From Escherichia coli (GTDB lineage: Bacteria; Pseudomonadota; Gammaproteobacteria; Enterobacterales; Enterobacteriaceae): a stretch of 64,000 nt of DNA. The stretch is taken from the NCBI RefSeq assembly GCF_003334405.1, contig NZ_QOWM01000002.1. One strand, given 5' to 3'. Each line of letters begins with the position of its first letter. Position 1 is the first letter of the stretch. The position numbers were made by a program. Below are positions 46,101 to 49,100 of the stretch, in pieces.

Positions 46101-49100
46101 TTGTTAAATAAGTGGTTATCTACGCTTTTAACAAACGATTGATGGAATATTTTATGAAAGGGAAATCTGCATTAACTCTTCTGCTCGCTGGTATATTTTC
46201 GTGCGGCACATGCCAGGCGACAGGGGCAGAAGTGACGAGTGAATCTGTATTTAACATTCTTAATTCCACGGGGGCAGCAACAGATAAAAGTTATTTATCG
46301 TTAAATCCAGATAAGTATCCTAATTATCGTCTTCTGATTCACTCAGCCAAATTACAAAATGAAATAAAGAGCCACTATACCAAAGACGAAATTCAAGGAT
46401 TGCTAACATTAACAGAAAACACACGAAAGTTAACGTTGACGGAGAAACCCTGGGGAACGTTTATTCTTGCTTCTACTTTCGAAGATGACAAAACAGCGGC
46501 AGAAACCCACTATGATGCTGTCTGGTTGAGGGATAGTTTATGGGGCTATATGGCATTAGTATCAGATCAGGGAAATAGTGTAGCCGCAAAAAAGGTTCTG
46601 CTCACCCTGTGGGATTATATGTCTACGCCCGACCAGATTAAGCGGATGCAGGACGTCATTAGCAACCCAAAACGACTGGATGGAATTCCCGTGCAAATGA
46701 ATGCTGTGCATATCCGATTTGACAGCAACTCCCCCGTGATGGCAGATGTGCAGGAAGAAGGCAAGCCGCAGCTGTGGAACCATAAACAAAATGATGCTTT
46801 AGGTCTTTACCTTGATCTCCTTATACAAGCAATCAACACTGGTACTATTAACGCTGAAGATTGGCAAAAAGGTGACCGATTAAAGTCGGTTGCGCTGCTG
46901 ATTGCTTATCTGGATAAAGCCAATTTCTATGTTATGGAAGATTCCTGAGCATGGGAAGAAGATGCCCGATTAAACACATCTTCCGTTGCACTGGTGACCT
47001 CTGGACTGGAACGTTTGTCAAACCTACTCTCGAAGAAAGACTCTGTTTTTGTCTCTGATTTACTACGCGAAGCTAAAGTCAATGAACTGGATGAAACTCT
47101 TTCAACAACGAGGTTGAACCACCTCATAGATAAAGGTTATGAAAGAATAACGTTACAGCTTGATTTAGGGGGAGAATCCCCAGGTTATCTGGAAAAAGAT
47201 AAACATTACAGAGAAGCCGATGCGGCTTTACTTAATGTTATTTATCCTACAAATCTTTCAAAGATAAACACCAGAAGAAAAGAGCAAGTTCTAAAAATAG
47301 TTAAAAAACTAGCAGGTCCGTATGGTATAAAAAGATACGAGAAGGATAATTATCAGTCGGCAAATTTTTGGTTCAATGATATTAAAACCGATACCGATCA
47401 AAATTCGCATGCAAAAAGAGAAAAGAGCTTCATTCCATCAACAGAAGCAGAATGGTTTTTTGACTCATGGTATGCAAAATCAGCAGCAATTGTTTATAAA
47501 GAATCAAGAAAAGAAGAGTATTTGAATGACTCAGTACAATTTATGAATAGATCATTGGCCCAAATAACAGGCGAGAATATGATTGGTGCAAATGGCAGGA
47601 GCGTACCAGAAATGGCACTTCCCGAAAGCTATAACTATATCCACAAGTCGGGAACTTTGCATGAAGCGCCAAGCCCTATCATTCCGCTAAATTGGTCGAA
47701 AGCTTCAATGACTCTCATGTTGAAAGAGATGTCCAACCTTATCAATGATGAGGGAATTAAATAGTTTTCATAATGAGTTACAGCACAACGTTGGGTATTG
47801 ACTGAGCAAGATGAACGACAAGGACAACGACATCAGCCTTATGAGGAGCAAGAAAATGAAAGCAAATTCGAAAACGATCAGAAGGATGAAAGTTAATGTT
47901 CGGTCTGAGGAAAGTAAATCGAAACACTCATACGTTTGAAACCACTTTTCAAAATTGGAAAGAAAATGGCGAAGATGTTGCATTATTAATGCCCGAATTT
48001 AGTGCTAAATGGCTACCGATAGCAGAAGAGAGTGGCAGCTGGTCTGGATGGGTATTGCTTGGAGAAATATTTCCCTTAATTTCATCTGAGCTCGCTGGGA
48101 TGGCTTTAATGCCAGAAACGGAAAGGTTAATAGGGGAATGCCTCAGTTTATCCAGTTCCCCGTTAAATCTAAAGCATCCTGAACTAAAATATAATCGTTT
48201 GCGCGTAGGTAAAGTATTTGATGGAGTATTGAGCCCTGCTCAACCACTAATAAGAATATGGACAGGGGAATTGAATCTTTGGTTAGATAAAGTCACAGTC
48301 TGCCAATACGGAAACGCTCCAGCGTTAGACAAAAAATCGTTATATTGCTCCATTCATTTTGTAATTGGATTTAGTAAAACATGTTACAGAAGTCTTGTTG
48401 ATATTGAAGTTGGTGATGTTTTATTAATCTCAAATAATTTGGCTTATGCGGTTATTTATAATACAAAAATTTGTGATTTAATTTATCCAGAGGAGTTAAA
48501 AATGGCTGATCATTTTGAGTACGAGGAAGATTTTGAAACAGATGATTTTGATATCAAAAAAAACGAGAGTGAGATTTATGATGAAAATGACGATCAGATG
48601 ATTAATAGTTTTGAAGACTTGCCTGTAAAAATTGAGTTTGTTCTTGGTAAGAAAATAATGAATCTATATGAAATAGACGAACTCTGTGCAAAAAGAATAA
48701 TATCTCTGCTTTCTGAATCTGAGAAAAATATAGAAATACGTGTAAATGGCGCGCTAACTGGCTATGGCGAACTTGTTGAAGTGGATGATAAATTGGGCGT
48801 AGAGATTCATTCTTGGTTATCAGGGCATAATAATGTCAAATAGCATTTCGCTGATAGCTATACTATCATTATTTACACTATTGCCGTTTATAATAGCATC
48901 CGGGACATATTTTATTAAATTCTCGATTGTTTTTGTTATTGTCCGAAACGCGCTGGGGCTTCAGCAAGTGCCATCAAATATGACACTTAATGGGGTTGCT
49001 TTGCTATTGTCAATGTTTGTAATGATGCCGGTTGGGAAGGAAATATATTATAACAGTCAGAATGAGAATCTTTCATTCAATAATGTAGCGTCGGTTGTTA

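Follow-up and report, generated by a model that had tools for sequence, protein, structure and literature searches.

In this study, we analysed a 64,000-nt stretch of Escherichia coli DNA (contig NZ_QOWM01000002.1), hereafter called the window, and focused on a gene whose reading frame is split by a single TGA. The locus is ygeQ/pkgA, the counterpart of b2863 plus b2862 in K-12 and of ECs3737 plus ECs3736 in O157 Sakai. It is almost certainly a nonsense pseudogene here, and one instance of the known piecemeal decay of ETT2 (the second type III secretion system of E. coli). The ygeQ/pkgA pseudogene itself has already been catalogued, as both the split K-12-type ygeQ and the decay of ETT2 are found in standard annotation and in the literature (PMC3977695; Ren et al., 2004, and Pallen, 2003, as cited there), and it carries little weight as a discovery. 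All coordinates below are positions in the whole window, and designations such as L001 refer to comparison loci from other genomes.

Two open reading frames (ORFs), 46112-46948 and 46994-47764, were found on the plus strand in the ORF listing of the window. When 46112-47764 was translated in one frame, a single internal stop was present (...ANFYVMEDS-stop-AWEEDARLNT...), and in the raw sequence the frame runs from ATG 46154 to TAG 47762-47764 with the TGA at 46946-46948 as its sole interruption. The joined product from this ATG has 536 codons, of which the stop is codon 265, and the same ATG is the start used in the PGAP/RefSeq annotation of near-identical genomes. The original prediction, in which two ORFs in one frame were said to be separated only by this TGA and to encode together a protein of about 536 aa, was therefore confirmed by the ORF listing, the translation and the raw sequence. 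Since both ORFs are co-linear and in frame, over the full length, with 536-aa proteins of many bacteria, a chance arrangement is excluded.

To place the stop codon among other strains, we compared the window with an intact B1 allele, that of O113:H21 FWSEC0010 (WP_000676929.1, 536 aa). The window and K-12-type loci read GATTCCTGAGCATGG at this site versus GATTCCGGAGCATGG in the intact allele, that is, one G-to-T transversion has turned GGA (Gly265) into TGA. An 81-nt probe centred on the TGA and the reciprocal GGA probe were then searched against 5,426 complete E. coli genomes. The TGA 81-mer was found exactly in 946 genomes, K-12 included, and the matches listed were all annotated as ygeQ or hypothetical; another 2,727 genomes differ from it by one base or more, and there the matches listed were all annotated as glycoside hydrolase family 15 (GH15). 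The GGA 81-mer was exact in 1,651 genomes. The restriction of the exact TGA form to a subset of genomes that includes K-12 indicates a lineage-restricted polymorphism, and neither a sequencing error nor a conserved feature.

The alignment of 36 homologues contains 73 invariant positions, and G265, W267, E268 and E269 are among them. None of the 36 sequences is interrupted at position 265, and Gly265 also aligns with a Gly of human phosphorylase kinase (PhK) alpha and beta (DFGIWE and DFGVWE). The stop thus takes the place of a residue that never varies in these homologues, and the family's most conserved motif begins two positions further on. The ancestral codon is thus fixed as GGA, encoding an invariant Gly beside WEE, and the original proposal of a nonsense pseudogene holds, as a sense codon occupies the TGA position in orthologs. 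The W-x-R-D motif that had been noticed upstream of the stop, and the WEE directly after it, were both found; Y120, W124, R126 and D127 are invariant in the 36 homologues, and the motif aligns with aWVRDN of PhK alpha. Over the whole frame, window 46154-47764 differs from L002 4115-5725 at 26 nt, with mixed polarity. The window/K-12 allele also has Val180 at a position that is Gly in nearly all homologues (GQM motif), which may be a second damaging change on a dead allele.

In a megablast search of the same genome set, window 46040-47800 matched 4,032 of the 5,426 genomes, always on the chromosome, and about 1,400 genomes lack the gene altogether. In genomes at least 99.9% identical to the window, RefSeq gives 'ygeQ: protein YgeQ' followed by 'hypothetical protein', while most genomes at 97-99% identity carry one single 'glycoside hydrolase family 15 protein'. 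Over 46154-46948, K-12-type genomes match the window at 100% identity. The locus differs from that of LR-64-2 (L001) at 2 of 9,761 nt, although base-for-base co-linearity with LR-64-2 does not extend to the wider window. In that genome the PGAP coding sequence (CDS) L001 4115-4909 corresponds to window 46154-46948, and PGAP calls part of the 3' remainder, from TTG 47015, a 'hypothetical protein'.

With regard to what the intact gene encodes, we found 252 homologues in a large protein collection, and the 120 best listed are mostly 500-560 aa in length. They come from E. albertii (76% identity), Yersinia enterocolitica (about 60%), Commensalibacter, Elusimicrobiota, Planctomycetota, Synergistaceae, Clostridiales, Bifidobacterium and Bdellovibrionales. 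The only Pfam match of the joined window protein is Glyco_hydro_15 (PF00723; i-E 5e-4, 19.5 bits), and the intact allele matches the same model at 2e-4; these matches range from 19.5 to 20.7 bits, cover model positions 16-308 of 427 and end before the invariant P490-E491-S492 region (47621-47629), which lies in the 3' remainder. PF00723 is matched by 18 of the 36 homologues at E<=1e-3 and by 31 at E<=0.1. In NCBIfam no model came near its cut-off; the best, TIGR01577, scored 15 bits where the cut-off is 821. When PDB sequences were searched with a profile, PhK alpha was reached (1.4e-7), with WvRD aligned to WVRD and GaWEE to GIWER, and canonical glucoamylases were not; the single-sequence PDB search gave marginal PhK matches only.

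The AlphaFold2 model built from the 36-sequence alignment is mostly helical and confident (pLDDT 90.6, pTM 0.90), with low confidence only in the first ~26 residues (pLDDT <50 at residues 1-4 and 15-26). Its top Foldseek matches in the PDB are PhK beta and alpha (E 4e-10 to 7e-10), followed by the 5z3a/7c24 'glycosidase' series (E ~1e-8, TM 0.69 on target), which we take to be a GH15 isomaltose glucohydrolase, and then by the glucoamylases 1ayx, 6fhw, 1gah, 2vn4 and 3eqa and the glucodextranase 1ug9. The Foldseek probability is 1.0 for PhK alpha/beta, 5z3a/7c24, 1ayx, 1gah, 3eqa, 2vn4 and 1ug9, and the other (alpha/alpha)6 clans GH125, GH100 and GH116 rank lower. PkgA therefore belongs to the GH15 fold group as a divergent member, and the regulatory-subunit domains of PhK are its closest relatives there. 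The GH15 similarity proposed originally stands in so far as GH15 is the sole recurring family among profile matches and the fold searches agree; by sequence it is weak, with Pfam E-values between 2e-4 and 5e-4, and the closest solved structures are those of PhK alpha/beta. As cited in PMC3977695, Pallen (2003) described PkgA likewise.

The invariance of W124-x-R126-D127, W267-E268-E269 and P490-E491-S492 suggests that the intact form is an active hydrolase. By analogy with glucoamylases, E268 would be the general acid and E491 is a candidate general base. Here, WEE (general acid) and W-x-R-D are presumed to be the glucoamylase motifs of the GH15 literature. To our knowledge, no member of the PkgA subfamily has been assayed for inverting exo-alpha-glucosidase activity.

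It is most likely that the history of the locus was as follows. In its intact form the gene, which closes the horizontally acquired ETT2 island beside glyU, encodes a (alpha/alpha)6-barrel protein of 536 aa from a divergent GH15-like family that is predicted to be exported and is probably lipid-anchored. A single G-to-T change, common to K-12 and about 950 other complete E. coli genomes, has turned the invariant Gly265 codon GGA into TGA, so that translation should stop after residue 264. The resulting 264-residue exported fragment would keep the export signal and W-x-R-D and would lose WEE, E491 and approximately half of the barrel helices. The 271 codons past the stop lack an export signal and show no evident way to function independently, and their translation would need a start at a TTG or GTG located 45-70 nt downstream of the TGA.

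Several points weigh against the interpretation as a dead gene. Loss of function is deduced here from the sequence; about 950 genomes still carry the allele, and both halves continue to be annotated as CDSs by PGAP. In addition, low-level read-through of UGA is always possible. Such read-through inserts Trp, which would place a bulky residue at the invariant Gly265. We see a small chance that the 264-aa YgeQ fragment or a trace read-through product retains some function; if so, this would help to explain the retention of the TGA allele in these genomes.

The gene is also broken by other lesions elsewhere. In O157:H7 ATCC 35150 (L003 4115-5720; L005 361-1966), a 5-bp deletion at codon 187 yields 187- and 352-codon pieces, which are ECs3737 and ECs3736. 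K-12 carries, besides the TGA, an IS2 insertion after nt 1,251 of the query, and IS421, IS3 or IS1 insertions were found in or beside the gene in other genomes. These distinct lesions in O157:H7, K-12 and other strains imply that the gene was lost repeatedly and independently. The pattern matches the 'mutational attrition' of which ETT2 reviews speak (PMC3977695).

The original prediction also held that the gene sits exactly where the eiv type III secretion genes are expected and may mark their deletion junction. By blastn against eiv-intact O157:H7, window 46012-47777 corresponds to L005 219-1979 and window 47769-49000 to L005 10707-11938. The two alignments overlap by 9 nt (L005 1971-1979 and 10707-10715), an imperfect microhomology of 8-9 nt that reads ATAATGAG on the left versus ACAATGATG on the right. 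The deletion spans approximately 8.7 kb and removed a GhoT/OrtT-family gene, eivF, eivG (sctC), eivE, eivA (sctV), eivC (sctN), eivI, a small ORF and most of eivJ. The first of these is a small toxin gene (ECs3735, ydcX-like; L005 2033-2212) that separates pkgA from eivF in eiv-intact strains. The 3' end of ygeQ/pkgA does adjoin the junction, which falls 5-13 nt past its TAG and leaves the gene itself untouched; on the other hand, the gene is the native terminal gene of ETT2 and stands next to glyU in eiv-intact strains as well.

The suggestion that the gene marks this junction holds only in the sense of this adjacency, as the junction lies past the gene and is also found with an intact one. 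O113:H21, whose GGA allele is intact, has exactly this junction, and thus the nonsense mutation and the eiv deletion are separate events. An 81-mer spanning the junction was covered to at least 80% in 1,932 of the 5,426 genomes, annotated variously as GH15 or hypothetical. The occurrence of the junction on both TGA and GGA backgrounds suggests one old eiv deletion that was later spread or widely inherited.

Other explanations of the split frame were weighed against the pseudogene. In view of the few nucleotides between the end of the gene and the junction, one might suppose that the eiv deletion itself gave rise to the gene or to its stop, for example through a fusion ORF formed at the junction. 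However, the TGA lies 820 nt upstream of the junction, the gene stands next to glyU in eiv-intact O157:H7, full length apart from its own frameshift, and many genomes, O113:H21 among them, combine the identical junction with an intact GGA allele, so that this extremely improbable explanation is already refuted. A sequencing or assembly error in the window is conceivable as a general possibility, but its probability is practically nil, and the identical TGA 81-mer in 946 independently finished genomes, K-12 derivatives included, has already refuted it. It is also very unlikely that the split is genuine, with an exported 264-aa YgeQ and a cytoplasmic C-terminal protein encoded by two independent functional genes. 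Both halves are RefSeq CDSs and the allele is common (946 genomes), but a single (alpha/alpha)6 barrel is cut by the break, which lies two residues ahead of the invariant WEE, and the downstream ORF requires the TTG or GTG start mentioned above. Moreover, among the 36 aligned homologues and the matches listed, no homologue of other taxa is split at position 265, and none ends there with a separate gene downstream, and the downstream piece of K-12 has been further truncated by IS2, which points to an absence of selection to keep it.

Programmed recoding, with the UGA read as selenocysteine or efficiently read through and the full-length 536-aa enzyme made, is likewise highly improbable. It would agree only with the stop being UGA, the only selenocysteine codon, and with the selenium-related genes ygfK, yqeB, yqeC and ygeY upstream in the window. 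Yet the conserved residue is Gly, not Cys or selenocysteine, and the TGA allele is confined to a subset of E. coli, which indicates a recent mutation and no conserved recoding site. No selenocysteine insertion sequence (SECIS) or other recoding element was found in the Rfam search, which gave only the tRNA at E<=1e-2 and in permissive mode added a sub-threshold tpke11 that overlaps the tRNA on the opposite strand. The 65 nt that begin with the UGA fold at -13.6 kcal/mol, and 106 of 200 shuffled sequences fold at least as well (z = 0.23). A selenoprotein was therefore rejected, with no SECIS match, no stable hairpin and an invariant Gly as the homologous residue. The window also contains prfB (8917-9798, 3' frame), whose release factor 2 (RF2) has Ala246 (...YRASGAGGQ...). 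RF2 with Ala246 is fully active at UGA, whereas the Thr246 form of K-12 terminates poorly at this codon. Thus, read-through should be low in the strain of the window. This strain shares the K-12 ygeQ allele yet is not K-12, and the annotated programmed +1 frameshift of prfB is also present in the window. All in all, a nonsense pseudogene remains by far the most probable reading of the locus.

A different question is what the intact protein may do. PkgA has been suggested as an ETT2 effector acting on host glycogen (Pallen, 2003, as cited in PMC3977695). We noticed that the N-terminus, MKGKSALTLLLAGIFSC, contains two Lys, a hydrophobic core and a lipobox-like IFSC ending in Cys17, as a pattern match only; a candidate signal peptidase I site after CQA is the alternative to the Cys17 lipobox. 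Clear lipoprotein or Sec export signals are present in many distant homologues and absent from Gram-positive ones. In three genomic contexts (the Yersinia, Commensalibacter and Bifidobacterium loci), no type III secretion neighbours were found. A 75-nt 'gene' beside the Yersinia homologue contains no tRNA according to ARAGORN. The Commensalibacter oyaizuii homologue (L008 8001-11147) is adjacent and convergent to a GH32 (fructosidase/invertase family) gene, a possible hint at a role in sugar scavenging and not in virulence.

The Sec/lipobox-like N-terminus and the lack of type III secretion linkage in the three non-Escherichia contexts disfavour an effector. Judging from the pattern match and the three genomic contexts, PkgA is more likely to be a glycosidase that is exported or is a lipoprotein and whose place at the edge of the island in Escherichia is fortuitous. 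The PkgA family is widespread and predicted to consist of exported or lipoprotein GH15-like proteins, with no type III secretion linkage seen outside Escherichia, which weakens the ETT2-effector idea. The intact family may be an exported/lipoprotein bacterial sister group of the glucoamylase-like domains of PhK alpha/beta and no type III effector. As the closest bacterial relative of these regulatory domains, it should be of modest interest to enzymologists.

The features of the locus are collected in Table 1. The gene order is xdhB-xdhA, actS (ygeR), tRNA-Gly, ygeQ/pkgA and then the ETT2 type III secretion genes, and glyU is the chromosomal landmark that the island abuts. The GC content of ygeQ/pkgA is 40.4%, while the upstream core has 50.9% and the remainder of ETT2 has 34.1%; the contrast of the gene with the upstream core fits an island origin. 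In previous work, ECs3736/pkgA and ECs3737 of O157 Sakai were reported as homologous to K-12 b2863 and b2862, the gene was called 'phosphorylase kinase and glucoamylase' and placed at the glyU end of the island, and glyU was given as the ETT2 boundary (PMC3977695). A full-text literature search for 'ygeQ' returned nothing relevant, and PMC7058095 and PMC6030553 contain no discussion of the gene.

Table 1. Features of the ygeQ/pkgA locus in the window
Feature	Position	Strand	Basis
tRNA-Gly glyU, anticodon CCC	45925..45998	+	ARAGORN; Rfam tRNA, 71.6 bits; annotated tRNA-Gly in related genomes
Putative export signal, codons 1-17, MKGKSALTLLLAGIFSC	46154..46204	+	PROSITE-like lipobox pattern, residues 7-17, Cys17
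5' pseudogene fragment, 264 sense codons plus TGA	46154..46948	+	RefSeq 'protein YgeQ' (K-12 b2863)
YDAVWLRDS, Y120-S128, GH15-type W-x-R-D substrate-binding motif	46511..46537	+	Invariance in homologues; alignment with PhK alpha
Premature TGA replacing GGA (Gly265)	46946..46948	+	Comparison with intact allele
3' pseudogene remainder, codons 266-536 plus TAG, same frame	46949..47764	+	b2862 counterpart in K-12
W267-E268-E269, presumed GH15 general-acid motif, downstream of the stop	46952..46960	+	Invariant in 36 homologues
eiv deletion junction, imperfect microhomology	47769..47777	.	blastn vs O157:H7
eivJ 3' remnant (SpaN/EivJ-family needle-length determinant)	47777..47896	+	PGAP, LR-64-2 locus L001 5738-5857
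Frameshifted epaO	47856-48843	+	PGAP, LR-64-2 locus L001 5817-6804, converted coordinates

Some further variation was observed at both ends of this region. Directly 3' of glyU there is a 78-bp indel (window 45999-46011 versus L005 128-218); the B1 and O157 alleles have about 81 nt here that are absent from the window and K-12 alleles. In this extra segment, no stretch of 8 nt or more that copies the 3' end of the tRNA was found, so that it does not resemble an att repeat. The rest of ETT2 (window 47856-64000, LR-64-2 annotation) is also decayed: epaO (YscQ family), epaS (YscU family), orgA, ygeF and a gene for a lytic transglycosylase are frameshifted, and ygeK, a LuxR-type regulator, contains an internal stop. 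In the same segment, epaP, epaQ, epaR and eprH-K are annotated as intact.

Among known relatives, K-12 ygeQ (b2863) plus b2862 is the same allele: it matches the first 1,251 nt of the query at 100% identity and has the TGA at codon 265. In K-12, however, the IS2 insertion truncates the 3' part and a larger ETT2 deletion is present, whereas in the window the 1,611-nt frame is complete, and after it come the eivJ remnant and then epaO through yqeH. The pkgA of O157:H7 Sakai (ECs3736 plus ECs3737) is an ortholog with about 98.8% nt identity and the terminal gene of ETT2 adjoining glyU, as also stated by Pallen (2003) according to PMC3977695. It differs in that it has the 5-bp deletion at codon 187, retains GGA at codon 265 and keeps its eiv genes. 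The O113:H21 FWSEC0010 gene (WP_000676929.1) is the same gene with the same flanks and eiv junction, and differs by 26 nt and 10 aa, including Gly265 in place of the stop.

Outside this lineage, the GH15-like N-terminal domains of PhK alpha/beta (PDB 8jfk and 8z5m) are the nearest solved relatives (profile E 1.4e-7, fold E 4e-10), and their WxRD and G-x-W-E motifs align with those of the E. coli protein. These are eukaryotic cytosolic regulatory subunits of more than 1,000 aa with only about 16-18% identity, in which the second Glu of WEE is Arg (WER), whereas the E. coli protein has 536 aa and a single domain and is predicted to be exported. Canonical GH15 enzymes (1ayx, 1gah, 3eqa, the glucodextranase 1ug9 and the 5z3a series) have the (alpha/alpha)6 barrel (TM up to 0.69) and the WxRD and WEE motifs in common with it. 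On the other hand, they are only 10-16% identical, the Pfam match reaches only about 20 bits, the NCBIfam glucoamylase-type models are unmatched, and the E. coli protein does not have the N-terminal beta-sandwich domain of bacterial glucoamylases.

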